Shown in pieces: positions 40,304 through 55,491 of a stretch of 56,134 nucleotides of DNA. The stretch comes from Myxococcales bacterium. GTDB taxonomy: Bacteria; Myxococcota_A; Polyangia; Haliangiales; SHYZ01. The stretch spans positions 1-56,134 of the forward strand of contig SHYZ01000004.1 in assembly GCA_009692535.1 (NCBI GenBank), in the 5' to 3' direction. The translations under genes and the position numbers were made by a program. Within the stretch, counting starts at the first letter, position 1. Each line of letters opens with the position of its first letter. The notes under the pieces are model-generated. The model had not been told where the DNA came from. It worked only from the letters and a program-made list of their open reading frames with translations, and ran no database searches.

Positions 40304-40358
40304 CGGGGCGGGAGCATAGAATGCTGCGCCAAGTTCTCCCGGTTGCGGGACGACATGA

Positions 40359-40403
40359 CCATCCAATATGGATGGTTGACAGCCATCCATTACCGGCCAC
40401 AAT
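40359..40403 (+). promoter_or_regulatory. Sigma70-type promoter (TTGACA 40376-40381; CACAAT 40398-40403) overlapped by three CCATCCA boxes (putative MocR/PdxR operator)
   Basis: CCATCCA 40359-65, TGGATGG 40369-75, CCATCCA 40383-89; perfect ATGGATGG/CCATCCAT inverted pair around the -35; 16-nt spacer. Confidence 0.7.
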
Positions 40404-40411
40404 CCCGCGCC

Positions 40412-41905
40412 ATGAACGGTGCCGACCTACCGCTCGACCGCGACAGCGACCTTCCGCTTCGGGACCAACTCGTCGCTGCGATCCGCGCCCGCATCGAGTC
40501 GGGCGAGTGGGCCAGCGGCACCCGCTTGCTGTCGAGTCGCGATCTCGCCAATCGGCTCGGTGTCAATCGCACGACGGTGGTGCTGAGTTACGACGAGCTC
40601 AGTCGGCTCGGTCTCATCGACTCGGCCGTCGGTCGCGGCAGCTTCGTTCGCGGCGCGGCCGCGATTCCGCGCGCCGCGGCGCCCGCGACGCCCGCGACCG
40701 GCGCCTTCACCTGGGATGGAGTGCTCGCGCGCAGCCGTCCGCTGCCGACGCTTCCGACCGACGTGGGCACGGTCGACAGCGTCGGCCTCGCGCGCGCCGT
40801 CGGCCATCCGATGCTCTTCCCGCTCGAGCGGATCAAGACCGCCGTCGATCGCGTCTTCGCCGAGCTCGGCCGTGACCTGCTCGCCTATCCCTCACCCGCC
40901 GGCTACGAGCCGCTGCGCGCTGCGCTGCGCACCCGACTCGCGCGCCACGGCGTCGCGGTCGATCGCAACGAGCTGATCATCGTCAATGGTTCGCAGCAGG
41001 GACTCGACCTCGTCGCGCGCCTGCTGCTGGCCGACGGCGGCACGGTGATCACGGCGCGGCCGAGCTTCTCCGGCGCGCTCGACGTCTTCCGCTGGTGGCG
41101 CGCGCAGCTGGTCGGCGTGCCGGTCGATGAAAACGGCTTCGACCTTGCCGCGCTCGATCGCGCGCTGGCGTCATCGCGCGCGCGCCTCGCCTACGTGATC
41201 CCGGATCGAGCGAATCCCACGGGCCTGACGATGTCGCCCGCCGCGCGCACCGCGTTCCTCGAACGGCTGCAAGCGGCGCGCGTGCCGGTGCTCGAAGACG
41301 ACTGGCTCGCCGAGTTGCGCGGCGTCGGTGAACCGGCGCCGATCAAGGCCGGTGATCGCCACGATCAAGTCCTCTACCTCGGCACCTTCTCGAAAGTCCT
41401 GGCGCCAGGACTGAGGCTCGGCTGGCTGCTGGTCCCGAAGGCGCTCTACAAGCCGATCCTGGCGTTGAAGAAGACCTCCGACCTCGCGACCAACTTCCCG
41501 GCGCAAGCCGTGCTGCACGAGCTGATCGAGAGCGGTTTCATCGACCAGCACGTGCGCGATCTGCGCGTGCAGCTCGAGCGGCGCCGCGCGCTGGTCGATG
41601 CCGCCATCGACCGCCACTTCCCGCGCGGCGCGCGACCGTGTCGCCCGCATTCGGGCATGGTCTGTTGGATCGAACTACCGCCCGGCAGTGAAGTCGCGCG
41701 CCTGGTCGAGGACGCGCGCCGCGCCGGCATCGAGATCTCGTCCGGCACGCCGTTCGACCCGGCGGGCCAGCCGATCGCAGCCTTCCGCCTCGCCTACGCC
41801 GCCGCCGATGAGGACGCGCTCGAACCCGCCATCGCTCGTCTCGGCAAGCTGCTCCATCACCACCTCCATGGCGCCGGCCAGCTCGCCGCGCCGCCGATGG
41901 TCTGA
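40412..41905 (+). CDS. pdxR: MocR/GabR-family PLP-dependent regulator (PdxR-like)
   Basis: GntR wHTH ([29 protein letters not shown]) plus aminotransferase domain ([28 protein letters not shown]). The symbol rests on adjacency to pdxST. Confidence 0.85.
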
Positions 41906-41921
41906 ACCAGAAGGAACTCCG

Positions 41922-42872
41922 ATGCAACGCAATCCGATGCAGGACAGCCCGAAGCAGCACGACGGCGCGCGCGGCGCCGACGACACGCCACTCCCCCATG
42001 GTCTCGACGAGGTGAAGATCGGCCTCGCGCGGATGCTGAAGGGCGGCGTGATCATGGATGTCACGACCGTCGAGCAGGCGAAGATCGCCGAGGATGCGGG
42101 CGCCTGCGCCGTGATGGCGCTCGAACGCGTGCCGTCCGACATCCGCAAGGAAGGCGGCGTGGCACGGATGGCGTCGATCGACATGATCGCGCGCATCCAG
42201 CAGGCGGTCACGATCCCGGTGATGGCGAAGGCGCGCATCGGCCACTTCGTCGAGGCGCAGGTCTTGGAAACGCTCGGCGTCGACTTCATCGACGAGAGCG
42301 AAGTGCTGACGCCGGCCGATCCTGAGAACCACATCGACAAGCGCGCATTCAAGGTGCCGTTCGTGTGCGGCGCGACCTGCCTCAACGAGGCGCTGCGGCG
42401 GATCGGCGAAGGCGCCGCGATGTTGCGGACCAAGGGCGAGGCCGGCACCGGCAACATCATCGAAGCCGTGCGCCACCTGCGCCTGATCCAGAAGACGATT
42501 CGCGAGCTGTCGGTCACGCCAACGGCCGAACTGATGCATCGCGCGAAGGAGCTGCAGGCGCCGTTCCATCTGGTCGAGTTCGTCGCGAAGCACGGCAAGC
42601 TACCGGTGCCGAACTTCGCCGCGGGCGGCATCGCGACGCCGGCCGATGCCGCGCTGGTGATGGCGCTCGGCGCCGAGGCCGTGTTCGTCGGCTCCGGCAT
42701 CTTCAAGTCGGACGATCCGGCGAAGACGGCTGCGGCGATCGTCAAGGCGACCGCGCAGTGGCGCGACCCGGCGGTCATCGCGCAGGCGTGCCGCGAGACC
42801 GGCAGCGCGATGCGCGGGCTCTCGATGGAGTCGATCCCGGAGGGCGAGCGGCTCGCGACGCGCGGTTGGTGA
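41922..42872 (+). CDS. pdxS: Pyridoxal 5'-phosphate synthase lyase subunit
   Basis: [62 protein letters not shown]. Confidence 0.97.
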
Positions 42873-42873
42873 C

Positions 42874-43482
42874 ATGCGCGGCATCGCTGGCGTCCTCTGC
42901 CTTCAGGGCTCGAGCGAGCCGCACCTCGCGCGGCTCGCTGAACTGTTCGCGGCCGGCGAGTTGGCGCAACCACCGCGCGAGGTGAGACAGCAGCGCGACC
43001 TTGACGGCCTCACCCACCTGATCCTGCCGGGCGGCGAATCGACCACGATCCGCCACCTGCTCGATCTGTTCGGAATGACCGACGATCTGCTCGCGCGCCA
43101 TCGCGATGGCCGGCTCTGCCTCTTCGGCACCTGCGCCGGCGCCATCCTGCTCGCTGCGGACGACGGCACGCGGCCGAAGCGCCTCGCGCTGCTCGACGCG
43201 ACGCTCGATCGCAATGCCTATGGCCGTCAGGTCGACTCGTTCAGCGAGGCGCTGACGCTCGAACTGCCCGAGGAGCACGGCGCCCCGACGTTCCACGGCG
43301 TCTTCATCCGCGCGCCGCGCTTCACGCGGATCGGGCCCGGCGTGCGAGTCGTGGCGCGGCGCGGCGCGGAACCGGTGCTGGTCGAGGCGCCGGGCCTGCT
43401 GGCCGGAACGTTCCACCCAGAGCTGACGCGCGATCTGCGGATCCATCGCCATTTCGTGGCTCTGAAGGTCGCGACCCACTGA
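42874..43482 (+). CDS. pdxT: PLP synthase glutaminase subunit
   Basis: GVLCLQG, LPGGESTT, GTCAGAILL, RNAYGRQVDSF, FIRAP, FHPELT. Confidence 0.96.
   Translation: MRGIAGVLCLQGSSEPHLARLAELFAAGELAQPPREVRQQRDLDGLTHLILPGGESTTIRHLLDLFGMTDDLLARHRDGRLCLFGTCAGAILLAADDGTRPKRLALLDATLDRNAYGRQVDSFSEALTLELPEEHGAPTFHGVFIRAPRFTRIGPGVRVVARRGAEPVLVEAPGLLAGTFHPELTRDLRIHRHFVALKVATH
43360..43394 (+). repeat. 35-bp direct repeat, copy 1 (inside pdxT)
   Basis: CGCGGCGCGGAACCGGTG-CTG-GTCGAGGCGCCGGG; 32/35 identical to 44776-44810. Confidence 0.75.
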
Positions 43483-43532
43483 CAACGGATTGAAGTTTCA
43501 ACTTTCAATCGGTCGAAGTTTCGCTCCGCGCC

Positions 43533-44754
43533 ATGTTCCGCCCCCGCGACCTCTCCGACGCCATCGAGCGCGCCTGCCGCAGCTTCCCCTGCGTGCTGGT
43601 CACGGGGCCGCGCCAGTCGGGCAAGTCGACCCTGCTGCGCCAGCGTTTCGGCGGCTCGCACGCATACGTCTCGCTCGACCAGCCCGACGCGCGCGAGCGG
43701 GCGCGGCGCGACCCGTCCGGCTTCTTCCGCCGCCATCCCGCGCCACTGATCCTCGACGAAGTCCAGCACGTCCCGGAACTGCTCTCCTACGTCAAGGCGA
43801 TGGTGGACGAGAACCGCCGGCCGGGCCAGTTCCTGTTGTCGGGCTCGCAGTCGTTCGCGCTGATGCAGGGCATCAAAGAGTCGCTGGCGGGCCGCGTCGC
43901 GGTGCTGACGCTGCTGCCGCTGTCGGCGGGAGAGATCGCCGGGCGCGTCCGCGACGCCCGCGACCGCGAGCCGATCCCGGCGCGCTGGATCGCCGGGCAG
44001 GGCGAGCTCCCGAAGCGGATCGCGCTGGCGCGCTGGTTGATGCGCGGCGGCTACCCTGAGCGCTGGTTCGCGCGCGGCGTCGATCAGGAGCTGTGGGCGG
44101 CGAGCTACGTGCAGACCTACCTCGAACGCGACGTGCGTTCCTTGATCGGCGTGCGCGACCTGAACGCGTTCGCCACCTTCCTGCGCCTCGTGGCGGCGCG
44201 CACCGGCCAGATCCTGAACCTCTCCGATCTCGCGCGCGACGCCGGCATCACCCATCCGACCGCCCGCCCGCCAATGGATCTCGGTCCTCGAGGCGAGCCA
44301 CCAGGTCCTGCTACTGCGCCCCCACTACGCCAACCTCGGCAAGCGGCTGATCAAGGCGCCGAAGATCTACTGGCTCGACACCGGCATCGCCGCCCATCTG
44401 GTCGGCCTCGACGAGCGCACCGTGACCACCCACGCGATGGCCGGCGCGCTGTTCGAGACCGCCGTCGTCGCCGAGATCCTGAAGGCGCACCACCATCGCG
44501 GCCGCGAGCCGCGCCTCTGGTACTTCCGCTCGCGCGACGGCTGGGAGGTCGACGTAGTGATGGAGCGCGGCGGCAAGTTGCACGCGATCGAGATCAAGCT
44601 CACCGCGACGCCGCGCCCACTCCACGCCGAGCCGCTCGAACGCTTCCGCCGCGCGACCAAGACCACGGCCGTCCCCGGCTTCGTGATCTGCGACGTCCAC
44701 CAACCCGAGCCGCTCGCGCCCGGCGTCACGGCGATGCCGTGGGGTCTGCTGTAG
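43533..44754 (+). pseudogene. AAA_14 + DUF4143 ATPase with C-terminal PD-(D/E)xK-like motif, frameshifted at (CCGC)3, 44260-44271
   Basis: GPRQSGKST, ILDEVQ, LSGSQ, GGYP, YLERD; continues in another frame with QWISVLEAS..KRLIKAPKIYWLDTG..GALFET..EVDVV..AIEIK. Removing one CCGC gives a 405-aa ORF. Confidence 0.85.
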
Positions 44755-44775
44755 CACCGACGGCTCCCGCATCGT

Positions 44776-44810
44776 CGCGGCGCGGAACCGGTGGCAGTCG
44801 AGGCGCCGGG
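44776..44810 (+). repeat. 35-bp direct repeat, copy 2 (pdxT-like relic downstream of the ATPase)
   Basis: CGCGGCGCGGAACCGGTG-GCA-GTCGAGGCGCCGGG; differs from copy 1 by one codon (Leu vs Ala). Confidence 0.75.
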
Positions 44811-44845
44811 TGTGGGTAGCGTTCGCGGTCGTTCTGGAGAACACC

Positions 44846-45730
44846 TTGAGTTCCGTCGCATGTTCGTTCGGCCTCGTGCTTCTGTCGCATTGTGCACCGC
44901 CCTCGGACTCGATCCAGGGCGCGCCGGTCGCTGCTCCCGCCTCTGGCGAGCGTGGCGCGTCGGCGGCAGCACCGGCGGTCGCTCCGTTCGACCACTCCGA
45001 CTGGGACACGATCCTGAAGCAGCACGGCAATGGCGACCGCGTCGACTACGCCGCGTTGAAGGCCGACCGCGCTCCGCTCGACGCTTACCTCGACCGCGTC
45101 GCGAAACTGCCGGCCGAGGCGCTGGCGAAGCTCCCGCGCGCGGACCAGATGGCGTTCTGGATCAACGCCTACAACGCGCTCACGCTGCAGACCATCGTCG
45201 ACCACTATCCGATCGCGGCGTCGGGCCTTTCGGCGCTGCGCTTCCCGAACAGCTCGATCCGCCAGCTCGACGACCCGTGGGGCAGCAAGCACACCATCGC
45301 CGGCGCACAACGCTCGCTCGATGACATCGAGCACAAGATCCTGCGCGCCGAATGGAAGGACGCCCGCATCCACGCCGCCGTCAACTGTGCGAGCGTCGGC
45401 TGCCCGCCGTTGCGCCTGGAGGCCTTCACCGGCGAGCAACTCGAAACGCAGCTCGACGAGCAGATGCGGCAGTTCGTCGCCGACCCGCTCCGCAACAAGA
45501 TCGACCCGGCGCAGAAGAAGATCGAACTCTCGCCGATCTTCGACTGGTTCGGCGAAGACTTCGGCACCAAGGCCGGCGGCAAGGGCAGCACGAAGGAGAG
45601 CGAGCGCGCGCTGCTCGCCTGGCTCGAGAAGTACGGCAAGCCTGAGTGGAAGGAGTTCCTCGCGAGCTTCGACCCCGACGACGTCGACTTCCTCGATTAC
45701 GACTGGACGCTGAACGAAGTCGTCCGCTGA
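44846..45730 (+). CDS. DUF547 domain exported protein
   Basis: FDHSDW, VDYAALK, AFWINAYNALT, LDDIEH, DARIHAAVNCASVGCPPL, YDWTLN; TTG 44846 with GGAG chosen as start (GTG 44810 is possible). Confidence 0.88.
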   Translation: MSSVACSFGLVLLSHCAPPSDSIQGAPVAAPASGERGASAAAPAVAPFDHSDWDTILKQHGNGDRVDYAALKADRAPLDAYLDRVAKLPAEALAKLPRADQMAFWINAYNALTLQTIVDHYPIAASGLSALRFPNSSIRQLDDPWGSKHTIAGAQRSLDDIEHKILRAEWKDARIHAAVNCASVGCPPLRLEAFTGEQLETQLDEQMRQFVADPLRNKIDPAQKKIELSPIFDWFGEDFGTKAGGKGSTKESERALLAWLEKYGKPEWKEFLASFDPDDVDFLDYDWTLNEVVR

Positions 45731-45780
45731 ACGATGGCAGGCGCGCTATCCTTCCGCCCCGCCTTGGGGGGGATCGTCGC

Positions 45781-48700
45781 ATGCCTGCCGACCCAATGAA
45801 TCCGCCGGCGGACGCGCCGCCGCCTGATCGCGCCGCTGGCGATGCGCGCGCGCTCGAACTCTTCGCGGTGTGGCTCGGCCGCCACAATGACGAAGTCGAC
45901 GACGCGAGCTTCGAGCGGATCTGCCGCGACCACGCCGAGATCGCCGCGGAGCTGCGCCGGCTGAAGCGCACGCTGGAACAGGTGGCGGCGGCACTGCCGC
46001 GCGAGGAGTCACCCGACGGCGTCGCTGATCGCCTGGCCGCGCAGTTCGGCGACGAGGTCGATCCGCGGATCTCGCTCGACGGCACCGACGAGCGCGCGCA
46101 CGCTGGCGCGAGCCGCGGCGCGGTCCATCCGCCGCCCACCTCGACCTGGTCGCGGCTGGTCGAGCGCATCCGCGGCCGCACGGCGCCGAGCACTCGCTAC
46201 ACGGTCGGCGAGGTGCTCGGCAAGGGCGGGATGGGCGTGGTCTATTCGATCTGGGACGCCGACCTGCGCCGCCGCCTGGCGATGAAGGTGATCCGCCGCA
46301 GCGGCGAACGCGAGGCGCCGCCGCCACGTCTTGGCGCGACGCCGTCGCCGGCAGCCGTCGCCACTGCGCAAGCGCCGATCGATCTGGTGAGCCTCGGCCG
46401 CTTCATCGAAGAGGCGCAGATCACCGGGCAACTGAACCACCCCGGCATCGTGCCGATCCACGAACTCGGCCTCGACGCCGACGGCCGCGTCTACTTCACG
46501 ATGCGCCTGGTGAAGGGCTCGACCTTCGCGCAGGTGATCGAGTGGGCGGCGACCGGCGAGCAGGGCTTCAACCCGACGCGCGCGCTCTCCGTGCTGGTCG
46601 CGGTGTGCGACGCGCTCGCCTACGCGCACGCGAAAGGCGTGGTCCATCGCGATCTGAAGCCGGCCAACGTGATGGTCGGCCACTTCGGCGAGACCTATGT
46701 CATGGACTGGGGCCTCGCCCGCGTGCGCGGCCAGAAGGACCGCCACGATCTGCGCTTGAAGGTCACCGACACCACGCGCTTCAAAACCGAGCGTGACGAG
46801 CCGGCCTCCTCGCGCGATGACGCGCAGCTGATGACGATGGACGGCGCCATCGTCGGCACGCCGGCCTACATGCCGCCCGAGCAGGCGTTCGGCAAGACCG
46901 AGCTGATCGACGCGCGCGCCGATGTCTACGCGGTGGGCGCGATGCTCTACCACCTGCTGACGCGGCGCATGCCCTACGTCGAGCCCGGCGCGCGCATGTC
47001 GCCGCGGATGATCCTCCTGGCGGTGCAGCATGGCCCGCCGAAGCCGCTGCACGAGATCGATGCCACGGTGCCGGCCGAGCTCGCCGCCATCTGCGAACGC
47101 GCCATGGCCCGCGAACTCGGCAAACGCTACGCGAGCACGCAGTCGCTGGCTGGCGAACTGCGCGCCTATCTCGAACACCGCGTCGTCGCCGCCTACGAGA
47201 CCGGCGCCGTCGCCGAGCTGAAGAAGTGGATCGAGCGCAACCAGGCGCTGGCCGCGTCGCTGGTGGCGGTGGTGGTGCTGGCGATCGGTGGGCTGAGCTG
47301 GAACGCATGGACGAGCCATCGGCATAACGAGGCAATCGCGACGAAGAATCGCGATCTCACCACGGCCAACGCGATTGCCGAGCAGAACGCGTCGGACGCG
47401 CGCGAGCAGGCGACCCGCGCCGACGCCGCCAAGCGCGAGGCGGAGGCGAATCTCGCCGACGTGCTGCGATTGGGCGACATCAAGCGGGTGCGCGATCTCG
47501 AGGCGCGCGCCAAGGAGCTGTGGCCGGCACGGCCGGAACTTGTGCCGGAGATCGAGGGGTGGATCGCGGACGCGAAGGAGGTCGTGAGCCGGCTCGATGC
47601 GCACCGAGTGTCGCTGGCGACGCTGCGGGAGAGGGCGCTGCCGGCGGACGCGCCGGAGGAGACGACCAGCGTCACGGCGCAGCGGCGGGAAGCCGAGCAG
47701 CGGCAGCGGCGCGAGGATCTAAAGCGGCTCGACGCGTTCCTCGCGAAGCGCGCGGAAGCGCTGGCAGCAGCCGATCAGGCGGAGAGTGCGGCGGCCGACG
47801 CCGAGACGAACGCCGAGAAGAAGGAAGCTCTCGGCGCCGCGCTGGCGGGATTGGCGATACAGCGCGCGGCCGTAGCGGAGGAACTGCGGGGCGGCAGCGG
47901 TGGTCGTGGCACCGACGCAGGCGCCGAAGCGGGCGCCTCTGCGTCCGCCGATCGCGTCTGGCGATTTGCCGCCGACGCCACCAGGCCGCAGTGGCGCCAC
48001 GATCAGCTTGCGGAGCTGGTCGCCGCGATCGAGGCGCTGCAGGCTGGGATCGAGGCTCCCGCGGAAGTGGTCGCCTCATGGAATCCGTCCGCCACCGAAG
48101 CGGCGCCGCCCGCTGCCTTCGTGCCGGCGGCCGCGACGATTGCCGCGCTGCAGCGGCGCATCGACCACGCGGCGTGGGTCGAGCAGGTGTCGCTGGATGA
48201 GGCGCTCGACGCCTGGCAGGAAGCGATCACGCGCATCGCCACGAACCCGAAGTACGCCGTCTTCGCCGATCGCCCGTTCAAGGAGCAGATCGGACTGGTG
48301 CCGATCGGCCCCGATCCCGACTCCGGGCTCGAGGAGTTCTGGCACGTCGGGACGGGCGCGCGGCCAAAGCACGATGCGACGAGCGGTCACGTCGTGATGC
48401 GCGACGCGACCGGCGTCGTTTTCATCCTGCTGCCGGGGGGCACCTTCACCATGGGCTCCCGCGATCCCGACGCCGACCACGCGGTCGGCACCCCGAACGT
48501 CAATCCCGTGTTGCGGAGCGACGAGCAACCTCCCCACGCCGTGTCGCTGGCGCCGTTCTTCGTCTCGAAGTTTGAGCTGACGCAGGCGCAATGGCTGCGG
48601 GTCGCCGGCAGCAATCCAAGCTGGTTCCAGGAGCAGGACGGGATCGGCAGGGCCTATCCGGCGACTTCACCCGTTGAGCAGGTGTGGTGGGACGTCGCGC

Positions 48701-49212
48701 ACGATCAGTGCGCCGCACTGGAACTGCGGCTGCCGACCGAGGCGCAGTGGGAGTACGCCGCGCGTGCGGGCACGACCTCGGTCTATTGGTGCGGCGATGA
48801 TCCGGCGGAGATCGATCACCGCAAGGCGGGCAACATCTTCGATCAGAAGGCTATTTCCGTCGGCTACTCGGTGCCGAAGACAGGTTCGACGGAAGCTTGG
48901 GACGATGGCTTCAGTGATGTCGCGCCAGTCGGGACGTTTACGGCGAATCCGTTCGGTCTTCACGACGTGATCGGCAACGTTTGGGAGTGGTGCGAGGACG
49001 AATACGCCGGCGACTACGAGAGCGCCCCCGCACGTCCCGGAGACGGAGAGCGATCGCTTCCCGTGCAGGCTGGCACCCGCCACCGCGTCTTCCGCGGCGG
49101 CGGCTGGCTCAACGGGGCCGTGTACGCGCGTTCGGCGAGCCGCTACCGGGGCGATCCCTCGGACCGCATCAACAGCCTCGGCGTCCGTCCCGCCAGGGTC
49201 ATCACTTGGTGA
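45781..49212 (+). CDS. DGR target: Ser/Thr protein kinase - TM helix - coiled coil - FGE-sulfatase/C-type lectin domain carrying the VR
   Basis: Kinase: GEVLGKGGMGVVY, LAMK, HRDLKPAN, DWG, GTPAYMPPEQ. TM: ALAASLVAVVVLAIGGLSW. FGE: FTMGS, RLPTEAQWEYAARAG, NPFGLHDVIGNVWEWCED, RVFRGGGW, GVRPAR. Start moved to ATG 45781. Confidence 0.93.
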   Translation: MPADPMNPPADAPPPDRAAGDARALELFAVWLGRHNDEVDDASFERICRDHAEIAAELRRLKRTLEQVAAALPREESPDGVADRLAAQFGDEVDPRISLDGTDERAHAGASRGAVHPPPTSTWSRLVERIRGRTAPSTRYTVGEVLGKGGMGVVYSIWDADLRRRLAMKVIRRSGEREAPPPRLGATPSPAAVATAQAPIDLVSLGRFIEEAQITGQLNHPGIVPIHELGLDADGRVYFTMRLVKGSTFAQVIEWAATGEQGFNPTRALSVLVAVCDALAYAHAKGVVHRDLKPANVMVGHFGETYVMDWGLARVRGQKDRHDLRLKVTDTTRFKTERDEPASSRDDAQLMTMDGAIVGTPAYMPPEQAFGKTELIDARADVYAVGAMLYHLLTRRMPYVEPGARMSPRMILLAVQHGPPKPLHEIDATVPAELAAICERAMARELGKRYASTQSLAGELRAYLEHRVVAAYETGAVAELKKWIERNQALAASLVAVVVLAIGGLSWNAWTSHRHNEAIATKNRDLTTANAIAEQNASDAREQATRADAAKREAEANLADVLRLGDIKRVRDLEARAKELWPARPELVPEIEGWIADAKEVVSRLDAHRVSLATLRERALPADAPEETTSVTAQRREAEQRQRREDLKRLDAFLAKRAEALAAADQAESAAADAETNAEKKEALGAALAGLAIQRAAVAEELRGGSGGRGTDAGAEAGASASADRVWRFAADATRPQWRHDQLAELVAAIEALQAGIEAPAEVVASWNPSATEAAPPAAFVPAAATIAALQRRIDHAAWVEQVSLDEALDAWQEAITRIATNPKYAVFADRPFKEQIGLVPIGPDPDSGLEEFWHVGTGARPKHDATSGHVVMRDATGVVFILLPGGTFTMGSRDPDADHAVGTPNVNPVLRSDEQPPHAVSLAPFFVSKFELTQAQWLRVAGSNPSWFQEQDGIGRAYPATSPVEQVWWDVAHDQCAALELRLPTEAQWEYAARAGTTSVYWCGDDPAEIDHRKAGNIFDQKAISVGYSVPKTGSTEAWDDGFSDVAPVGTFTANPFGLHDVIGNVWEWCEDEYAGDYESAPARPGDGERSLPVQAGTRHRVFRGGGWLNGAVYARSASRYRGDPSDRINSLGVRPARVITW
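49076..49198 (+). repeat. DGR variable repeat (VR)
   Basis: 123 nt, ungapped match to the TR at 51548-51670; 15 mismatches, all opposite TR adenines; encodes the last residues of the FGE domain. Confidence 0.96.
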
Positions 49213-49487
49213 CTCTTACGACTTCACCGACCGCATTGGCGATCACCGTGAAGCATCGCTGAGGTCCGCGGTCCGCAGGCCAAGCGCAGCGTGGCCGAAG
49301 GACGGCGGACCGGCCGGGAGCAAGGCGGTGAACCTGGCGCGGAATCGGGAATGACGAGTCCGCATTGCGCGCAATGAGCGGCCGCACGGATTGACATCAA
49401 ACGTGCGATGCGGATGCTGCCCCGATTTTTTTCGATGGCGGTTCGGCAAAGGGTGGGTACTGGGCGGTCTCCTTATGGAGACTCGCG

Positions 49488-50126
49488 ATGCGCGTCAGAC
49501 TGCTCACGTTCCGCTATTCCGCGACACTCGGCGGCTTCGATGACACGCCGCTGGTCGAACTGCTGCGCGACAAGGAACTGATCTCCTTCCGCGAGCACTT
49601 CTTCGCGGTGAACGAAGTTCCGCACCTGACCTGCGTCGTTACGTGGCAGGAGGCGCTGGTGCCGACGCATCGGATCGGCTCGGGAGCAGCCGTTGGCGCC
49701 GTGCCGTCAGCCGCCGCATCCGGCAGAACGGAAACGGCCGCGCGAGCGCGATTCGAGCCAACCCCGCAAGGTCACCCCGCCGCCGAACTCGACGAGCCGC
49801 AGCGCCTGCTCTTCAATTCGCTCCGCGAGTGGCGCGCCACCACCGCGCGCGCCGAAGGCGTGCCACCGTTCCTGGTGTTCACCAACCGCCAACTCGCCTG
49901 GATCGCCACCCAGCGCCCGGAGTCGGCCAACTCGCTCGCCAATGGCCACGGCATCGGCCCGTCGAAGACGCGCCGCTATGCCGAGGCCGTGCTGCGCGTG
50001 CTGCATGGGCCACGGCCGGTGGCGGCGCCTGAACCGGGGGTGGAGTTCGATGCACCGGCTCGAGCCGGGCCGGTCCCTCCCGCCGACTTGATCGTGGCGG
50101 TCCTCACCGCGGCACCGCAACCGTGA
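49488..50126 (+). CDS. HRDC-domain protein (DGR accessory)
   Basis: LFNSLREWRATTARAEGVPPFLVFTNRQLAWIA..GIGPSKTRRYAEAVL is an HRDC signature; GGAG RBS. Confidence 0.88.
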   Translation: MRVRLLTFRYSATLGGFDDTPLVELLRDKELISFREHFFAVNEVPHLTCVVTWQEALVPTHRIGSGAAVGAVPSAAASGRTETAARARFEPTPQGHPAAELDEPQRLLFNSLREWRATTARAEGVPPFLVFTNRQLAWIATQRPESANSLANGHGIGPSKTRRYAEAVLRVLHGPRPVAAPEPGVEFDAPARAGPVPPADLIVAVLTAAPQP

Positions 50127-50518
50127 GCGCCATCCCGATCGATCGCCCGGCTCCGTCAACCGCCGGCCCGGAACTCCTGGTGCTGGCGCAATGGGAGGAG
50201 TTCACGGGTTGGCTTCTCGCCCACACCGGCCGCTGGCCGAAGTCGGTCCGCTTCACGCTGGCGCAGCGCGTCGAGGAGCACGCGCTCGACATCACCGAGA
50301 TGCTGGTCGAGTCGCGCTACGTACCGGCTGCACGCGCGGCGCACTTGCGTGAAGTGAACCTCCGGCTCGAGCGGATGCGCCACCTGCTGCGCCTCGCGCT
50401 CGCCACCCACGCCACCTCGAATTGCGGCTTCGAGTCCGTCATGCGCGGCATCGACGAATGCGGTCGGATGGTCCACGGCTGGCGCGAGGCGTTGAAGCCG
50501 AGGAGCACAGAGCGATGA
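50123..50518 (+). CDS. avd: Accessory variability determinant Avd (four-helix bundle)
   Basis: 131 aa, helical; WPKSVRFTLAQRVE..LERMRHLLRLA..DECGRMVHGW resembles the Avd consensus; GTGA overlap with the HRDC gene and ATGA overlap with the RT gene. Confidence 0.88.
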   Translation: MSAIPIDRPAPSTAGPELLVLAQWEEFTGWLLAHTGRWPKSVRFTLAQRVEEHALDITEMLVESRYVPAARAAHLREVNLRLERMRHLLRLALATHATSNCGFESVMRGIDECGRMVHGWREALKPRSTER

Positions 50519-51528
50519 AGCGCGTCGGCAACCTGTGGCCGCTGGTCACCGATTTCGGAAACCTCCGCCGCGCCGCGTTCCGCGCCGCCGCCAGCAAGCG
50601 CGACCAGCGCGGAGTCGCGGGCTTCCTCGAACGGCTCGAGCCGGAGCTCTTCGCGCTGCAGCGCAAGCTGGTCGACGCCACGTGGCGCCCCGCCCCCACC
50701 CACTCCTTCACGATCCGCGATCCGAAGACGCGCGTCATCACGGTGGCGCCGTTCTGCGACCGCGTCGTCCACCACGCGCTGATCGATCCGCTCGAGCCGC
50801 TGCTCGACCGACGTCTCTGCTTCGAGAGCTTCTCCTGCCGGCGCGGCAAGGGGACGCACAAGGCGCTCAATCACGCGCAGCGGATGCTGCGGCGGCATGC
50901 ATGGTTCCTGAAGCTCGACGTGAAGGCGTTCTTCCCGTCGCTGTCACACGCCGTGGTGATGGCGACGCTGGCGCGCATCGTGAAGGATCCAGAGGTTCTG
51001 CGGTTGGTGGAGCGGATCCTCGCGGCGCACGGAACGGGCGAAGGCGGCGCGCGCGGCGTGCCGATCGGCAACCTCACCAGCCAGTGGTTCGCGAATCTCG
51101 TGCTCGGCCGGCTCGATCACCAGGTGAAGCAGGAACTGCGGATCCCCGGCTACGTGCGCTACATGGACGACTTCGTGCTGTTCGCCGAGGACAAGGCGAC
51201 TCTGCAGGCCGCGCACGGTTGGATCGAGCGGTGGCTCGGCGAGGAGCTCTCCCTGCGGTTGAAGCCGACGGCGACCCAATTGGCGCCGGCGAGCGAGGGA
51301 TTGCCGTTCCTCGGAATCCACCTGTGGCGCGGGACGCGCCGCCTGCGACCCGCGAACCGGCGCCGCACGGTGGCGCGGCTCGCGACGCGCGGGCGGCAGT
51401 TCGCCGCCGGTCGGATCGAGGAGCCGGCCTACCTCGACAGCGCTCGCTCGATCTTCGCCCACTTGCACGGCACCGGATGCCGTGCCTTCGCGCGGCAGCT
51501 CGCAGAAAGGAGTTGTGAGCCCATGTGA
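50515..51528 (+). CDS. DGR reverse transcriptase
   Basis: 337 aa from ATG 50515 (AGGAG RBS); DPKTRVI, DRVVHHAL, KGTHKA, LKLDVKAFFPS, GVPIGNLTSQWFAN (DGR-type SQ motif), YVRYMDDFVLF, FLG; no maturase or endonuclease domain. Confidence 0.95.
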   Translation: MKRVGNLWPLVTDFGNLRRAAFRAAASKRDQRGVAGFLERLEPELFALQRKLVDATWRPAPTHSFTIRDPKTRVITVAPFCDRVVHHALIDPLEPLLDRRLCFESFSCRRGKGTHKALNHAQRMLRRHAWFLKLDVKAFFPSLSHAVVMATLARIVKDPEVLRLVERILAAHGTGEGGARGVPIGNLTSQWFANLVLGRLDHQVKQELRIPGYVRYMDDFVLFAEDKATLQAAHGWIERWLGEELSLRLKPTATQLAPASEGLPFLGIHLWRGTRRLRPANRRRTVARLATRGRQFAAGRIEEPAYLDSARSIFAHLHGTGCRAFARQLAERSCEPM

Positions 51529-51547
51529 TGGGGACCGGCCACTGGCT

Positions 51548-51670
51548 CCCGCAACCGCGTCAACCGCGGCGGCGGCTGGAACAACGAGGCCGTGAACGCG
51601 CGTTCGACGAACCGCAACCGGAACGATCCCTCGAACCGCAACAACAACCTCGGCGTCCGTCCCGCCAGGG
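51548..51670 (+). repeat. DGR template repeat (TR)
   Basis: Begins 19 nt after the RT stop; 12 AAC codons in the VR frame and 28 adenines, of which 15 are substituted in the VR. Confidence 0.96.
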
Positions 51671-51880
51671 CGTCGATCCGCCCGATCGCGATGGTCACTT
51701 GGCCAAAGGCCCCGGACCGCCGCGCCGCGCAAGTGATGCCCAGGCTGGTCTCCTGCGCTTCGATCGGGTGGACGGCTCGCGGTAGCGAGCCGCAGCCCGA
51801 TCGCGGCCGAAGAGTCATGCGCCGCCGGCCGTGGTAGCCGAGGAGACTCGGCGAAGCGGCTGGCGACGCCTCTTTTCGAG
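51671..51880 (+). ncRNA. Putative structured 3' spacer of the DGR RNA
   Basis: Hairpins CGATCGGG..CGGCTCGC-GGTA-GCGAGCCG..CCCGATCG (51761-51803) and GCCGAG-GAGA-CTCGGC (51837-51852) within a longer stem. Confidence 0.5.
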
Positions 51881-51989
51881 TTCGACTCGACCGACGTGGC
51901 TCCGCGAGTCGGCGGTCTCCCACTCCTCGCAAGCGCAATGGAGGACGGTGCACGCCGGGCCCGTTTCCAAGATCTTCAATCGCCGACGA

Positions 51990-52700
51990 CTACTTCCCCA
52001 GCTTCCTCGCCAGCAGTCGCACGACATGCGTCTTCGGGCCGAGGTTCCAGTCGCTCTCGAAGCGGCCGTCCTCGTAGGCGAGCACGCGCCAGTCGGCGAA
52101 GGTTTGCAGCAGCTCGCCCGGCTTGAACAGCGTCTCCTTTGGCGGGCCGCCGCCGTCGTGCTCGCTGCCCTGGCCCTCGATCACGATCACGCCGCCCTGC
52201 TTCACGGCCGCCTTCAGTCGGTCGACGATCGAGAGCGCGGGGTTGAAGTAGATCACGCTCAGCAGGTCCCACTGCGCGGTGCCGTAGTCGAAGGCGTAGA
52301 GGTCGGCCTCCCGGCAATCGAGGGTGAGCGACTTCGCCGCAGCGCTCGCGCGCGCCTTGTCGAGCCCGACCTTGCTGATGTCGACAGCCGTGGTCTTCCA
52401 GCCGCCGGCCGCCAGCAGCAGTGCGTTGCGTCCATCGCCGGCAGCGAGGTCGACCGCCGTGCCGGGCGCGAGCCACTTCTCGTCGGCGAGGCGACGGAGC
52501 GAGCGAGCGAGAAAGTCGTTCGGTTCGGTGCGGTAGCGCGGCTTGGCGGTGCTAAAGACCTTGTCCCACTTCTCCGGATCGCTGACGCCGCCACCCTGCG
52601 GCTGCGACGGCGAGCGCCACGCGATCGCGAGGCCGGCAACAACCGCGACGGCGAGCAGCAACGCCGCTGCGGCAGCTCGTTCAAGAGCGGATTTCCTCAT
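51990..52700 (-). CDS. Class I SAM-dependent methyltransferase with N-terminal hydrophobic anchor
   Basis: VDLAAGDGRNALLLA, AVDISKVGL, ADL, GGVIVIE; GGAG RBS before ATG 52700. Confidence 0.88.
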   Translation of the reverse strand: MRKSALERAAAAALLLAVAVVAGLAIAWRSPSQPQGGGVSDPEKWDKVFSTAKPRYRTEPNDFLARSLRRLADEKWLAPGTAVDLAAGDGRNALLLAAGGWKTTAVDISKVGLDKARASAAAKSLTLDCREADLYAFDYGTAQWDLLSVIYFNPALSIVDRLKAAVKQGGVIVIEGQGSEHDGGGPPKETLFKPGELLQTFADWRVLAYEDGRFESDWNLGPKTHVVRLLARKLGK

Positions 52701-52912
52701 GCGTCGATCTCCCTCGCGCTTCATTTCGTCGCCTGACCCGTCGACGGTCGATGCGGCGCACGATCGTGCCAGAAAACTCTGCGACTGCACGCGCGCGATT
52801 CGCGTTTGCCTGACGCTTCACCCAGCACACCGCCGAACTAGGCGCGCAAGGGAGAGGGCGGCAGGGCGGCACGACCGGCCTGCAAGACGACGCGCCAACA
52901 CGAGATCACACC

Positions 52913-53788
52913 TTGATTCACGCTGCTGCCGCCCTGCTCCTTTCTTGGCTGAACTGCGTCGGCGAACCCGAAGCGCCGGCAGCTGACTTGATGGTCGCCG
53001 CGGCGACCCGTCCGATCTTGGTCGAGGCGGCGCCACTGCTCGGCGGCGACCGCCCGCTCAAGGCGAGCGGGCTCGCGCCAGCGAAGCGCTGCGCCCCGTG
53101 GGTCCTGATCGCGTCCGCGAGCGACGCCCCGCCCGATCGCTACCGGCAGTGGACCGAGGCTCTGGCGCACTGCGGATTCGCGACGCTGGTCGTCGAGCGG
53201 CAGCAGGACGAGGCGTGGTGGCGCTACGCCAAGGCGATCGAAGACGCGGCGACGCTGCTCCGCGCCGGAGCCGCGACGCCGGACCACCCGTTGTTCGAGG
53301 CGATCGATCCGCACCGATTGCTGGTCCTCGCCGACGGTGACGGGACGACCGCGGCGGCGCGGGCGGCGGCGACCATCGTCGATCTCGACGGACTGTTGCT
53401 GCTCGACCCCAACGATGCCGGCGCAGCACTGCCATGGCTCGCCCGCATCGAGGCGCCCGTCGCGACTGTGGCGAGCGGCTTCGAGCGCGAAGAGCACGCG
53501 AACACCTGGTTCCGCGCCGGCCGCGGTGGAACGAGTCGCCGTTGGTTGGTGCAATTCCAAGGCGAGCAGGGGCTGCCTCCGGACCACGGAAAGGAACGGC
53601 CGCGACTCGAACAGGAAGTGCGCGACGTCTGTGTCGCCTTCGTCGAATGCACGCTGCCGACTGCGACGGCTACAGCGACGAGCACGCGGACGCTGACCTT
53701 CGCGGAACGCGCGGGTCGCGGCACGATCGATCGCACGATCAAATCCACCGACGACGCGGCGCGCATCGCGCTCGCGCAATCGCGCTGA
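52913..53788 (+). CDS. Exported hypothetical protein, possibly a degenerate alpha/beta hydrolase
   Basis: Signal-like start; YRQWTEALAHCGFATL, IDPHRLLVLADGDG and LLLLDP recall chlorophyllase-like folds but there is no GxSxG. Confidence 0.5.
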   Translation: MIHAAAALLLSWLNCVGEPEAPAADLMVAAATRPILVEAAPLLGGDRPLKASGLAPAKRCAPWVLIASASDAPPDRYRQWTEALAHCGFATLVVERQQDEAWWRYAKAIEDAATLLRAGAATPDHPLFEAIDPHRLLVLADGDGTTAAARAAATIVDLDGLLLLDPNDAGAALPWLARIEAPVATVASGFEREEHANTWFRAGRGGTSRRWLVQFQGEQGLPPDHGKERPRLEQEVRDVCVAFVECTLPTATATATSTRTLTFAERAGRGTIDRTIKSTDDAARIALAQSR

Positions 53789-53902
53789 CGCGCCGCTGAC
53801 ACCGCGCCGGAAGGCGCCCTCGGCGTCAGCGCTCGAGCTTCGCGGAACGCGCGTTCGCAAGCGTCGTAACCGTGGCTTCCCCAACTCTCACGAGGGAAGC
53901 CC

Positions 53903-54514
53903 ATGCCGACGAATCGTCTCCGCGCGTGGTTGCCGCTGATCGTCGCCGCGATTCCGCTGGTCGCTTGGAGCGCGCAACAAGTCGCGCCGAAGGTGACGCA
54001 GCGCCCGTTCGCCGAGCTCAGCACGCGCGGCAGCACGCGCATCTTCTATTGGGGTGGCAACAGCTCGGGCGGGCAGCTCGAGATCCACTACGGCCAGCCG
54101 CCGTGGAAGGCGGAGTACGACGCCGCGATCCCGACCTTGTCGGGCCAGCGTTGGCGGCTCGGCCAGAACTTCTGGACCACGCTCGACACCAACATCGACC
54201 TCGAGCTGGCCGACGTCGAGATCCTGGCGGGTTGCTACTACCTCGCGCTCGAACGCAATGCAGATGGGTCGTTCGTGCTCTGGGTGCTCGATCCGGTCGA
54301 GATCCGTGACGCCCACCTCGACGCTTTCTTGGTCAAGCAGACCACGGGCGGCATCGCGATCCCGCTCGCGTACAAGAGTTCGCCGGTGCTCGCCGACAAG
54401 CTGCAGATCCGGCTCGACGTCGAGCCCAACGTGAAGGACCGAGGCAAGTTCGTCCTCCACTTCGGGTCGCACGAGCTTTCGGCATCCCTCACGATGGCGC
54501 CGGCCCGCGACTGA
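53903..54514 (+). CDS. DUF2911-like exported protein
   Basis: Signal peptide; LEIHYGQP, WRLGQNFWTTL, ILAGCYYL pattern. Confidence 0.7.
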   Translation: MPTNRLRAWLPLIVAAIPLVAWSAQQVAPKVTQRPFAELSTRGSTRIFYWGGNSSGGQLEIHYGQPPWKAEYDAAIPTLSGQRWRLGQNFWTTLDTNIDLELADVEILAGCYYLALERNADGSFVLWVLDPVEIRDAHLDAFLVKQTTGGIAIPLAYKSSPVLADKLQIRLDVEPNVKDRGKFVLHFGSHELSASLTMAPARD

Positions 54515-54729
54515 CCGCGGATCGACCACTCCGCAGCACTCCGCACAGCGATCTCTCGCTCCGCAGCGCCAACGCACAGCGCCTCGAACGGGCGGCTCTG
54601 GCGCACGGTACGATGCGCCGCGCCCGCCGGATCGACGCGCAAAGTGCATCGATCAAGCGTCGGCGCGCCGCCGAATGGCGGTTCCCACTGTCCCATTGCA
54701 AACAGTTCCATTGCGAGAGGAAGAAGCCG

Positions 54730-55491
54730 ATGGTTGCAACCGAAGTCGCGTTGCGTTCGCGCGGCAGCGCGCTGAAGGCCGTGCTCGTGCTGGTGGTGGC
54801 GGCGGGCGCTGCCTATGCCTTGTTTCCGGGCGTCCGCGCCATCTTCGACCAGCAGCTCGACAAGGTGGGCGGCTGGAACGACGAGGCGCGCCGCCACGAT
54901 CCAGTCGGCTTCATCGACTACTCGATCGGCAAGCTCAACGAGAACGTCGCCCAGTTCGGCATGGTGAAGGTCGACCTCGCGGTTGCCAAGACGAAGATGC
55001 AGAAGATCCGCGACGACAGCCAATCGAAGGTCACCTTCGCGAGCAAGGAGCTCGAGACTTTCAAGGCGGCCTACAAGGACGCGGCGGGCGGGAAGGGCTG
55101 GCCAGTGACGCTCGCGGGGAGGACCTACGACGAGGCACAGCTCAAGCAACAGGTGAACGTGTTCCTCACGCAGCGGACGAGCTACGAGATGTCCGCGAAG
55201 CAGGCTGCTGACGGCGCCGCCTCGGCCGGCAAGCGCGAAATGGACGTCCTGGCGCGCGTCACAGAGAGCAAGGCGAAGCTCGAGCTGCTGAAGACGCAAC
55301 GGGAGTTGGTGAAGGTCGCCAAGCTCACCGCCGAAACTGAAGCGCTGCTCGCCGAAGTGAACGAAGTGCTCCTGCAGAATGAGGAAGCCACCGCGGCGAA
55401 CCCGGTGCTCACGGTGGAAGAGATGATGAAGCAGAAAGAGTCGAGCTCTGGCGCGTCGAACGCCAACGTCGACGCCTTCCTCAACGGATGA
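54730..55491 (+). CDS. Membrane-anchored coiled-coil protein (PspA/IM30-like topology, tentative)
   Basis: N-terminal TM (AVLVLVVAAGAAYALF), long heptad helices, C-terminal VDAFLNG; purine-rich RBS. Confidence 0.75.
   Translation: MVATEVALRSRGSALKAVLVLVVAAGAAYALFPGVRAIFDQQLDKVGGWNDEARRHDPVGFIDYSIGKLNENVAQFGMVKVDLAVAKTKMQKIRDDSQSKVTFASKELETFKAAYKDAAGGKGWPVTLAGRTYDEAQLKQQVNVFLTQRTSYEMSAKQAADGAASAGKREMDVLARVTESKAKLELLKTQRELVKVAKLTAETEALLAEVNEVLLQNEEATAANPVLTVEEMMKQKESSSGASNANVDAFLNG

Follow-up and report, generated by a model that had tools for sequence, protein, structure and literature searches.

Organisation of the locus

The window (the whole stretch of DNA analysed, 56,134 nucleotides) contains one DGR with one target. 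The DGR is complete, with HRDC, Avd, reverse transcriptase (RT) and TR, and the order of the elements is target-HRDC-avd-RT-TR; the target gene and all parts of the DGR lie on the + strand. The target gene (45781..49212) is translated into 1143 residues with zero internal stops, and its product is a predicted Ser/Thr kinase of the single-pass receptor type whose C-terminal domain is of the formylglycine-generating enzyme/C-type-lectin type (FGE/CLec). An identical protein of 1143 aa is present in the protein collection (P0002), so other gene callers picked the same start, and a start at the alternative GTG (45646) would run the frame into the end of the DUF547 gene upstream (last position 45730). 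The target is neighboured by this gene and by a convergent methyltransferase; no FHA protein, PP2C phosphatase or substrate partner was identified near it. The locus comes from the MAG of an uncultured freshwater planctomycete.

From the N-terminus onwards, the protein consists of a Ser/Thr kinase that resembles PknB, a single hydrophobic helix, a helical ectodomain of ~330 aa and the FGE/CLec domain. Pfam matches the first and the last of these (Pkinase, aa 140-454, E 1e-30; FGE-sulfatase, aa 881-1139, E 1.4e-42), and the AlphaFold2 model of the 1143-aa protein has a mean pLDDT of 84.3. There is no Pfam match in aa 1-135, where the model contains an N-terminal helical domain (aa 17-71; 45829..45993) made of helices at aa 17-34, 41-50 and 52-71, with a pLDDT that reaches 95 per 10-residue block. 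The matches of this domain in an Atlas search were unnamed Planctomycetota clusters only.

The VR (49070..49198; aa 1097-1140) forms a 129-nt repeat with the TR (51542..51670), and 16 of its codons contain TR adenines. The TR itself has 28 adenines in its 129 nt; 12 AAC codons and four other A-containing codons allow ~2.5e16 possible protein variants. The two copies differ at 16 positions, all of them codon positions 1 or 2, and 15 of these are TR adenines, i.e., a mismatch rate of 54% at adenine sites and of 1% elsewhere. The sole non-adenine mismatch is at 49075, where the TR has a T. In the search for an IMH element and its hairpin 3' of the VR, the VR and the TR proved to share the same GC-rich 3' end. 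Further 3' (~49263-49312), a GC-rich hairpin does not stand out from shuffled sequence (z -1.47), and it recurs in L016, a locus that lacks the cassette.

The HRDC-domain accessory gene (49488..50126) was identified by Pfam HRDC (E 6.7e-18), and the gene order is the same in another DGR locus, L026. The avd accessory gene (50123..50518) scores 42.6 bits with Pfam bAvd (cut-off 40) and 70.6 bits with NCBIfam DivGenRetAVD, which is under the cut-off of 80. The RT gene (50422..51528; Pfam RVT_1, E 1.3e-20) has an uncertain start, with an ATG at 50515 that overlaps the avd stop. Its product is 85% identical to the RT of L026 and carries the motifs IGNLTSQ (aa 215) and YMDD (aa 247), IGxxxSQ being a mark of DGR RTs. 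No DGR-RT-specific NCBIfam model matched it, and the best model was that of group II RTs, below its cut-off. A conserved non-coding stretch lies past the TR (51671..51882) and is possibly part of the DGR RNA; the segment 51530-51882 aligns to L026 with 84.5% nucleotide identity.

The variable domain and its stalk

The C-terminal domain is an FGE-type C-type lectin (aa 839-1143; 48295..49209) that ends in the VR, as the initial annotation of this DNA had claimed, the VR being located within the FGE-sulfatase domain. Its best sequence match in the PDB is TvpA (2y3c; E 4.4e-20). Foldseek aligned it to FGEs with TM-scores of 0.66-0.72 (target-normalised). Catalytic FGEs have two copper-binding cysteines. 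In the alignment with a solved FGE, LCHESYC faces LNGAVYA, so that N1111 and A1116 replace the cysteines, and N1111 is itself a DGR-variable codon. With both catalytic cysteines lost, the domain is non-catalytic and serves for binding, not as an enzyme.

Most variable codons (13 of 16) fall on alignment columns with an entropy of 3.2-3.9 bits among 97 homologues, and they alternate with an invariant scaffold (R1105, G1106, G1107, R1117, R1121, G1134 and R1136). The alignment with TvpA and this variability within the family predict that the variable residues are at the surface.

The domain was initially described as standing on a long coiled-coil stalk. This description needs qualifying: the stalk (aa 523-829; 47347..48267) is a helical ectodomain of ~330 aa that has long helices at aa 523-579, 632-670 and 674-706, with pLDDT mostly 80-98. 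It also contains conserved Trp-containing motifs, and in an alignment of 18 homologues conserved motifs lie on both sides of a length-variable central part. Structure searches with the stalk returned generic helical hairpins and coiled coils only (Z <= 9.9), and Pfam returned no match.

Distribution of the family and of the cassette

Of 7998 candidates that were scored, 3453 proteins are full-length homologues with the same domain order (E<=0.001), and the best 120 of these 3453 all carry Pkinase and FGE-sulfatase. Homologues with 38-75% identity cover 88-99% of the 1143-aa protein, the nearest non-identical one (P0003/L016) being 73-75% identical. Several are named in NCBI as 'bifunctional serine/threonine-protein kinase/formylglycine-generating enzyme family protein'. 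Proteins with this kinase-TM-FGE architecture are very frequent among Planctomycetota. The capture of such genes by DGRs is rare: an intact cassette was found beside a family member in one of 79 genome loci and in none of 80 metagenome loci.

The L016 locus is collinear with the window on both sides of the cassette (35046-49321 and 51991-56134), and only ~63 nt separate the two flanks there. Relative to this locus, the whole cassette is a presence/absence segment (49322..51990), and no RT was found in the genome of L016 with the RT query used. This comparison suggests that a chromosomal kinase gene was either captured by a DGR cassette or stripped of one.

Planctomycetota DGR loci were also sampled more generally (n=40): 27 of them have an HRDC homologue, and the RT homologues adjoin A-biased repeat pairs in 33. 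Among the VR-bearing FGE ORFs of the Planctomycetota sample, 27 of 30 lack a kinase, and many consist of an N-terminal hydrophobic segment and the FGE domain only. Such proteins favour a reading in which the CLec domain of our target is an extracytoplasmic module for binding or anchoring (to varying surfaces of the envelope, of polysaccharides or of particles), the state of its ligand does not control the kinase, and the kinase is constitutive or follows other cues. It also agrees with the account given in bioRxiv 10.1101/2020.04.01.020958, where most cellular DGR targets are interpreted as proteins that are anchored in the membrane and bind extracellular substrates. However, the kinase, the juxtamembrane motif, the TM helix and the FGE domain occur together in all of the 120 best homologues, and the catalytic residues are invariant. 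Non-cooperating halves that are nevertheless kept together, with invariant catalysis, are hard to explain, which makes this reading unlikely.

Predicted membrane helix and topology

A single transmembrane (TM) helix had been proposed at 47245-47301, preceded by the basic residues KKWIERN, and both were recovered, the helix as a prediction from hydropathy. The Kyte-Doolittle 19-residue mean has one peak, of 2.22, at aa 489-507 (47245..47301), and KKWIERN is at aa 481-487, where W483, R486 and N487 make up a conserved juxtamembrane motif. The hydrophobic peak is confined to aa 484-512, and the runner-up windows reach 1.42 (aa 270) and 1.37 (aa 871). There is no N-terminal signal sequence and no hydrophobic window before aa 270. 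The structural model has a helix at aa 488-509, with a low pLDDT (about 40-60). A hydrophobic segment is found at the same place, ~200 aa past the HRD motif, in 120/120 homologues.

The charges that flank the helix had been used to orient it, and this argument depends on the scale at which it is made. The TM segment of the 1143-aa protein sits in a 27-residue uncharged span with three K/R on the kinase side and three on the sensor side, so that these charges do not decide the matter when this protein is taken by itself. The argument does stand for the family: Lys and Arg are more numerous on the kinase side in 74 of the 120 homologues, equal in 33 and fewer in 13, and the net charge is +3.0 vs +0.6 across the TM segment, with a median uncharged span of 24 residues. 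The architecture originally proposed, with the kinase inside, one membrane helix and the variable lectin outside, is supported by the invariant catalytic residues and PknB-like fold of the kinase, the one conserved helix, the charge bias of the family, the alignment of the VR with TvpA and the restriction of the listed VR differences between samples to TR adenines. The orientation itself has the bias of the family in its favour, while the charges of this protein are even. We infer that the kinase is cytoplasmic and that the stalk and the CLec domain are extracytoplasmic. If the envelope is diderm, as it is in planctomycetes, 'outside' is most likely the periplasm.

The protein could alternatively be cytosolic, with a hydrophobic stretch that does not span the membrane and a CLec domain acting as an internal autoinhibitory or substrate-selecting module, as proposed for the cyanobacterial kinase-CLec variable proteins, which are mostly predicted to be cytosolic (PMC7517822). 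The three other kinase-CLec DGR targets found in Planctomycetota (L136, L161 and L152) indeed all lack a hydrophobic segment, with maximal Kyte-Doolittle means of 1.28, 1.09 and 1.19. The target described here differs from them by a window mean of 2.22 within its uncharged span, and the conserved position of the segment and the positive-inside bias of the family also point to a membrane protein; we regard a cytosolic location as very unlikely.

The kinase domain

The Hanks-type kinase domain (aa 140-465; 46198..47175) is PknB-like in sequence and fold and has DWG instead of DFG. Its top sequence match among solved structures is PknB of M. tuberculosis (E 1.5e-34, all motifs aligned), which is also its best fold match (Foldseek TM-score 0.85-0.88, target-normalised). 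The catalytic motifs named in the initial annotation are all present: GKGGMG (aa 147-152), LAMK with K169, HRDLKPAN (aa 289-296), DWG (aa 309-311) and PPE (aa 365-367). A family alignment of 98 sequences has the invariant positions G149, K169, E211, H289, R290, D291, K293, N296, D309, W310, G311, T352, E367, D381 and R449. The Hanks set (Gly loop, Lys, alphaC Glu, HRD..N, DFG Asp, APE and subdomain XI Arg) is therein complete and invariant, with the change of F to W, and T352 aligns with the activation-loop Thr of PknB. The kinase is predicted from these residues to be catalytically competent.

A pseudokinase scaffold might be suspected from the DWG motif and from two insertions, one of ~30 aa between beta3 and alphaC and another in the activation loop, but DWG is the norm of the family (118 of 120 homologues) and the Gly loop, K169, E211, HRDLKPAN, the DWG Asp, T352, PPE, D381 and R449 are all invariant in it, so we consider this highly improbable. 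The statement in the initial annotation that cyanobacterial kinase-CLec targets are often pseudokinases finds no echo in the main text of the paper that describes them (PMC7517822), where the word 'pseudokinase' does not occur and Hanks motifs I-IX are reported.

Diversification between samples

We compared samples with each other using Logan contigs rather than raw reads; run X2 and the sample that is the probable source belong to one study. The X2 contig that covers 49071-50085 has 18 differences; 14 of them are listed, and 14/14 are at TR adenines, within 68 nt. The rest of 48000-52200 that is covered by X2 contigs (~3 kb) has only two differences (48900 and 51781). At the VR, the assembly of X2 is interrupted and neither X3 nor X4 gives any cover. 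Listed differences that are restricted to adenines, next to near-identical flanks, are the signature of the DGR mechanism and not of drift. On the basis of this comparison, the DGR is active or recently active.

Some cassettes beside the kinase-TM-FGE family do decay, since in L182 and L183 the family member is followed closely by remnants of RT and HRDC genes, and L203 has another RT fragment. L026 also has eight of 23 VR/TR substitutions off adenines and a 9-nt insertion in the VR. We nevertheless give hardly any credence to the DGR described here being a decaying passenger, with VR differences that reflect ordinary strain divergence without ongoing mutagenic retrohoming: its four cassette parts are all intact, and the differences from X2 are concentrated as just described.

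A proposed mechanism

The reading that we favour, and that we hold to be probable, is that an HRDC-type DGR diversifies the extracytoplasmic sensor of a single-pass, PknB-like receptor kinase in which the binding of a ligand leads to phosphorylation. The DGR, directly downstream of the kinase gene, would rewrite as many as 16 codons, which lie in the final beta-strands and loops of the CLec domain. A ligand at the variable surface would change the oligomeric state or the conformation of the protein, as in PknB-type receptor kinases, and this change would result in the phosphorylation of the activation loop (T352). The activated kinase would then phosphorylate its substrates. The signalling chassis would in this way stay the same while the specificity of its sensor differs from one cell lineage to another.

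A further reading follows the analogy with an adaptive immune receptor that the initial annotation had drawn, with phage or kin among the ligands, and is that of a somatically diversified kinase resembling an antigen receptor. Each clone would expose its own periplasmic CLec paratope on a conserved, PknB-like chassis, the binding of non-self (a peptide, a foreign glycan or a protein of a phage) would be turned into phosphorylation, and the population would possess in advance a repertoire that could reach about 1e16 receptors. We regard this as tentative and, on balance, doubtful. If it were true, the thousands of paralogues without a DGR, variable at the same positions, would represent its germline-encoded counterpart.

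Under the favoured reading of a diversified receptor kinase, the sample-specific VR alleles and the cassette-less gene at the same place in a related genome make it a testable question whether sensor hypervariation feeds a phosphorylation pathway. The locus also ties the action of DGRs to the receptor kinases of planctomycetes, a very large family that is unstudied and in which the same positions vary among paralogues.

Comparison with known systems

The receptor kinases of the PknB, PrkC and StkP type share the layout of the target, in which a Hanks kinase in the cytoplasm is linked through a juxtamembrane segment and a single TM helix to an extracytoplasmic sensor. They differ from it in that their sensor is made of PASTA repeats, whereas the target has a CLec domain that is hypervariable and stands on a helical stalk, and DWG in place of DFG. 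Its score with NCBIfam PknB_PASTA_kin (189.6 bits) is under the cut-off of 450, and it is therefore not a member of that family.

TvpA of Treponema denticola (2y3c) is a DGR variable protein, and the VR described here aligns to its VR-bearing C-terminus. TvpA is a lipoprotein and is not known to have a kinase or a signalling part that spans the membrane. The Treponema element is the representative of the HRDC-containing DGR architecture in Wu et al. (PMC5758913).

The putative antigen sensors of multicellular bacteria described by Dore et al. 2024 (PMC10907252) also have CLec VRs fused to signalling or conflict domains, including Pkinase in one class of loci, and both cytoplasmic and periplasmic locations are predicted for them in that paper. 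As described there, these loci are within STAND NTPase or MoxR-vWA conflict systems and there are many targets per genome, whereas here there is one DGR with one target and no conflict-system neighbours at the target locus.

The initial annotation had mentioned kinase-CLec DGR targets of cyanobacteria, and these are indeed described by Vallota-Eastman et al. 2020 (PMC7517822): they too have a C-terminal CLec domain of the FGE type on a Hanks-type kinase, and a role in signalling is proposed for them. A function of DGR-diversified kinases in signal transduction has already been suggested in print (PMC3575424; PMC7517822). The cyanobacterial targets are presented in the latter paper as mostly cytosolic, whereas in the target analysed here a conserved membrane helix and ~330 aa of helical ectodomain separate the kinase from the CLec domain. 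It also comes from another phylum, has a kinase of another subfamily (DWG) and is served by a cassette of the HRDC type. Kinase-CLec DGR targets have appeared in print, surveys included, since 2012, mostly as cytosolic proteins, and the membrane-bound version is a rare variant of them. Kinase-fused DGR targets have earlier been regarded chiefly as cytosolic regulators. This locus offers a clean, minimal case in which a predicted-competent kinase and a hypervariable domain lie on opposite sides of a predicted membrane helix.

The DGR and its target gene

We read this locus as an active HRDC-type diversity-generating retroelement (DGR). On this reading its target is a single-pass receptor kinase that resembles PknB, is catalytically competent and belongs to a very large planctomycete family, and the part that it diversifies is the FGE/CLec sensor, which would be extracytoplasmic and non-catalytic. 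The target gene (45781-49212, + strand) translates without a stop into 1143 residues, and a public collection holds an identical protein of equal length (P0002). The sequence-level claims made for this gene in the initial annotation are confirmed and the finding is real: all the motifs it named occur in the translation, i.e., GKGGMG (aa 147-152), LAMK (K169), HRDLKPAN (aa 289-296), DWG (aa 309-311), PPE (aa 365-367) and KKWIERN (aa 481-487). Pfam places a Pkinase domain at aa 140-454 (E 1.1e-30) and an FGE-sulfatase domain at aa 881-1139 (E 1.4e-42).

The DGR at this locus is genuine, and none of its parts is missing. The target is followed by an HRDC gene (49488-50126), by avd (50123-50518) and by the gene for a reverse transcriptase (RT) with IGNLTSQ and YMDD motifs (50422-51528). 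The template repeat (TR; 129 nt, 51542-51670) stands 3' of the RT gene and matches the variable repeat (VR; 49070-49198), the last 129 nt of the target gene. The two repeats differ at 16 positions, 15 of them TR adenines and all at codon position 1 or 2. The 28 adenines of TR are spread over 16 codons, 12 of which are AAC, so that adenine mutagenesis could yield about 2.5e16 protein variants and no stop codon. No second VR was found in the metagenome-assembled genome (MAG) of the window (3.63 Mb, 235 contigs, 80% complete); one further TR-like match, C176, has 51 mismatches, 16 at adenines, and is an ordinary FGE paralogue.

A hairpin or terminator 3' of VR was rejected, the fold being no better than that of shuffled sequences (z -1.47). 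A GC-rich inverted repeat without a T-run is present 50-100 nt past the target stop codon (49263-49312); since it is kept in a related locus that lacks the cassette (L016), it belongs to the 3' region of the kinase gene and not to the DGR.

The kinase domain

The best solved-structure sequence match to the kinase half is PknB of M. tuberculosis (E 1.5e-34). The alignment pairs the Gly loop, K169, the alphaC Glu (E211), HRD..N, the Asp of DWG, the GT..Y..PE segment, D381 and the subdomain XI Arg, and it places T352 on the first Thr of the PknB activation-loop TQT, which we take to be a phospho-site. An AlphaFold2 model of the target built on 98 sequences (mean pLDDT 84.3) matches PknB structures with TM-scores of 0.85-0.88, normalised to the target. 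The catalytic residues aligned to PknB, as well as W310, are invariant in the 98-sequence alignment, and in 118 of 120 homologues the first match to DxG reads DWG. Judged from the sequence, this residue pattern is that of a working kinase under purifying selection and not of a pseudokinase.

Ahead of the kinase, aa 17-71 (45829-45993) are confidently modelled as a three-helix domain. It matches no Pfam family, and its Atlas neighbours are solely unnamed proteins and clusters of Planctomycetota; these neighbours are short, which suggests that the domain also occurs as a stand-alone protein.

Membrane topology and stalk

The proposed transmembrane segment (47245-47301) was borne out as the single strongly hydrophobic stretch of the protein, with a Kyte-Doolittle 19-residue mean peaking at 2.22 (aa 489-507). 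In the AlphaFold2 model, a juxtamembrane helix (aa 476-486) and a helix spanning aa 488-509 are followed by a helical region (aa 523-829), whose long helices occupy aa 523-579, 632-670 and 674-706, and then by the FGE domain. Folded alone, the helical region reaches a pLDDT of 82; aligned with 18 homologues, it has conserved ends and an indel-rich centre. The earlier description of this part as a coiled-coil stalk is fair, and nothing more specific is supported: among 48,161 chains it matched only generic helical hairpins (Z at most 9.9), under the level that is meaningful for helical models.

The target has three Lys/Arg residues on each side of the membrane helix, which is uninformative for its orientation when the protein is taken alone. 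Among 120 homologues, the kinase side carries more of these residues than the other side in 74, as many in 33 and fewer in 13; the net charge of the family is +3.0 on the kinase side vs +0.6 on the other, with a median uncharged span of 24 residues. We adopted an N-in/C-out orientation because the kinase depends on ATP and the target has no signal sequence at its N-terminus. If the planctomycete envelope is diderm, as we assume, the sensor would be exposed to the periplasm rather than to the medium.

The sensor domain

The best solved-structure sequence match of aa 861-1143 is TvpA, the DGR variable protein of Treponema denticola (2y3c, E 4.4e-20), followed by PvdO and true FGEs, and the VR segment of the target aligns with the C-terminal segment of TvpA. 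The catalytic LCHESYC of a solved FGE aligns with LNGAVYA in the target, which misses both cysteines; this makes the NCBI-style name of its relatives, "bifunctional kinase/FGE", misleading for this protein. One of the two lost cysteine positions, N1111, is itself a DGR-variable codon. Of the 16 positions that the DGR can vary, 13 rank with the most variable columns in a comparison of 97 homologues (entropy 3.2-3.9 bits), and the scaffold residues between them (R1105, G1106, G1107, R1117, R1121, G1134 and R1136) show no or almost no variation.

Variation of VR between samples

The window stretch is present in four freshwater metagenome runs, in every case as assembled contigs, which cannot show heterogeneity within a sample. 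One run (X2) is a different sample from the study in which the window probably originated and is not independent of that study. Its contigs are identical to the window over 48000-48775 and differ once over 50065-52200; over 49071-50085 there are 18 differences. The 14 of these that are listed with positions (49108-49175) all fall at TR-adenine positions and alter 10 codons, from aa 1110 to aa 1132. The X2 assembly breaks inside VR. Two further runs (X3 and X4) have zero cover over 49128-49268, a gap that would fit a failed assembly at a variable site and that we do not count as evidence. We conclude that the DGR is active, or was until very recently.

Related loci with and without the cassette

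L016, which lies on a contig of 544 kb, encodes the closest full-length homologue of the target (73-75% identical). Collinearity between the window and this locus extends over 35046-49321 and 51991-56134 (67-82% nucleotide identity), and about 63 nt stand there in place of the 2.67-kb cassette (49322-51990). The RT query from the window found no RT in the 5.8-Mb genome of L016. The VR-equivalent of L016 differs from the window TR at 64% of TR-adenine sites and 13% of other sites, a pattern consistent with diversification in the past as well as with a rapidly evolving binding surface.

An intact cassette was found at L026, in a Phycisphaerales MAG, with an RT 85% identical to that of the window and a target cut by the contig end. 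Compared with its own TR, the L026 VR (about 1040-1200) carries a tandem duplication of 9 nt, and 8 of the 23 substitutions between the two lie away from TR adenines; variants may have been merged into a chimeric assembly, or the pair may be older and drifting. PdxS identities to the window (77% for the L016 genome and 83%, from a partial match, for that of L026) rank neither as nearer; the cassette may have been gained in the window or lost in L016.

Other features of the neighbourhood were noted. A convergent SAM-dependent methyltransferase gene (51990-52790, - strand) ends at the exact point where collinearity with L016 resumes; the + strand ORF overlapping it (51831-52736) is probably spurious. 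An AAA_14/DUF4143 ATPase gene (43533-44819, + strand), between pdxT and a DUF547 gene, is missing from the otherwise collinear L016 and thus adds another presence/absence difference near the DGR locus. The pdxS (SOR/SNZ) and pdxT (SNO) pair for pyridoxal-phosphate synthesis lies at 41598-43482 (+ strand), the pdxS ORF having an N-terminal extension of about 135 aa ahead of its Pfam match. A TPP riboswitch (9651-9750, + strand) is the sole Rfam family at gathering score in the window (59.4 vs 54.3 bits). DUF547 was ruled out as a conserved gene partner, as only the orthologous L016, and no locus among the other 78, has it next to the family gene.

A large family with few cassettes

A word-based search returned 3453 relatives of the target at E<=0.001 among 7998 scored candidates. 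The best 120 of them all have both Pkinase and FGE-sulfatase domains and a hydrophobic segment about 200 residues past HRD. Named relatives and the 79 best genome loci belong to Planctomycetota (Phycisphaerales, Planctomycetaceae) or to unnamed MAGs. Genomes often encode several paralogues; the MAG of the window has a single copy.

Counted in the sequence adjoining the family genes, which leaves room for remote TRs elsewhere in those genomes, an intact RT/Avd/HRDC cassette occurs at one of the 79 genome loci (L026) and at none of 80 metagenome loci. The FGE C-terminus was found in 45 of the genome loci, 33 of these with at least 3 kb of downstream sequence, and in 33 of the metagenome loci (21 with at least 3 kb). 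Three metagenome contigs carry RT gene fragments 3' of family genes (L182, 9888-10106; L183, 3564-4024; L203, 10225-10401), of 60-70 aa and 47-61% identical, joined in L183 by an HRDC gene fragment. No adenine-biased repeat pair was found near them, and they look like decayed DGR cassettes.

Comparison with other DGRs

Of 401 sampled Planctomycetota genomes, 62, that of the window among them, have an RT match at E<=1e-25. We fetched 40 of the listed places (L127-L166), giving preference to high scores and to longer contigs. An adenine-biased repeat pair is present in 33, 30 have VR inside an ORF with an FGE profile, and 27 have an HRDC homologue with the RT, usually in the order target-HRDC-avd-RT-TR. 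Wu et al. 2018 (PMC5758913) found HRDC genes in 14 of 372 DGRs, with the Treponema element representing this architecture; among Planctomycetota DGRs the HRDC architecture thus seems to be the norm.

Three of the 30 FGE targets contain a kinase, of the DWG type (L136 and L161) or the DFG type (L152), and all three lack a stalk profile and a hydrophobic segment (hydropathy means of at most 1.28, 1.09 and 1.19, respectively). The targets of L136 (about 9424-11960, - strand) and L161 (about 140-2920, + strand) are kinase-CLec proteins of the same DWG subfamily as the window, with kinases 37-42% identical; having neither hydrophobic segment nor stalk, they are predicted to be the cytosolic counterpart of the receptor. 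The remaining kinase-linked DGR targets of the phylum thus belong to the cytosolic kind; among the Planctomycetota loci examined, only the window and L026 showed the membrane-receptor kind.

Kinase-linked targets have precedents. Schillinger and Zingler 2012 (PMC3575424) describe FGE-like DGR targets bearing kinases and speculate on a signalling role; Wu et al. list one target composition with a kinase domain; and Vallota-Eastman et al. (PMC7517822) is a further source in print. A 2024 MAG survey (PMC11661182) has targets annotated Pkn1 and PknD with CLec domains, and Dore et al. 2024 (PMC10907252) recognise a Pkinase-bearing class and discuss cytoplasmic and periplasmic sensors. No publication was found that joins "diversity-generating retroelement" with "receptor kinase", although supplementary tables of DGR surveys may list the architecture; publications on FGE-sulfatase, kinase and Planctomycetes, judged by titles and the start of abstracts, did not deal with the kinase-TM-FGE family. 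Kinase-CLec fusions are already known as DGR targets; what is new here is the membrane-receptor topology, the family and the lineage.
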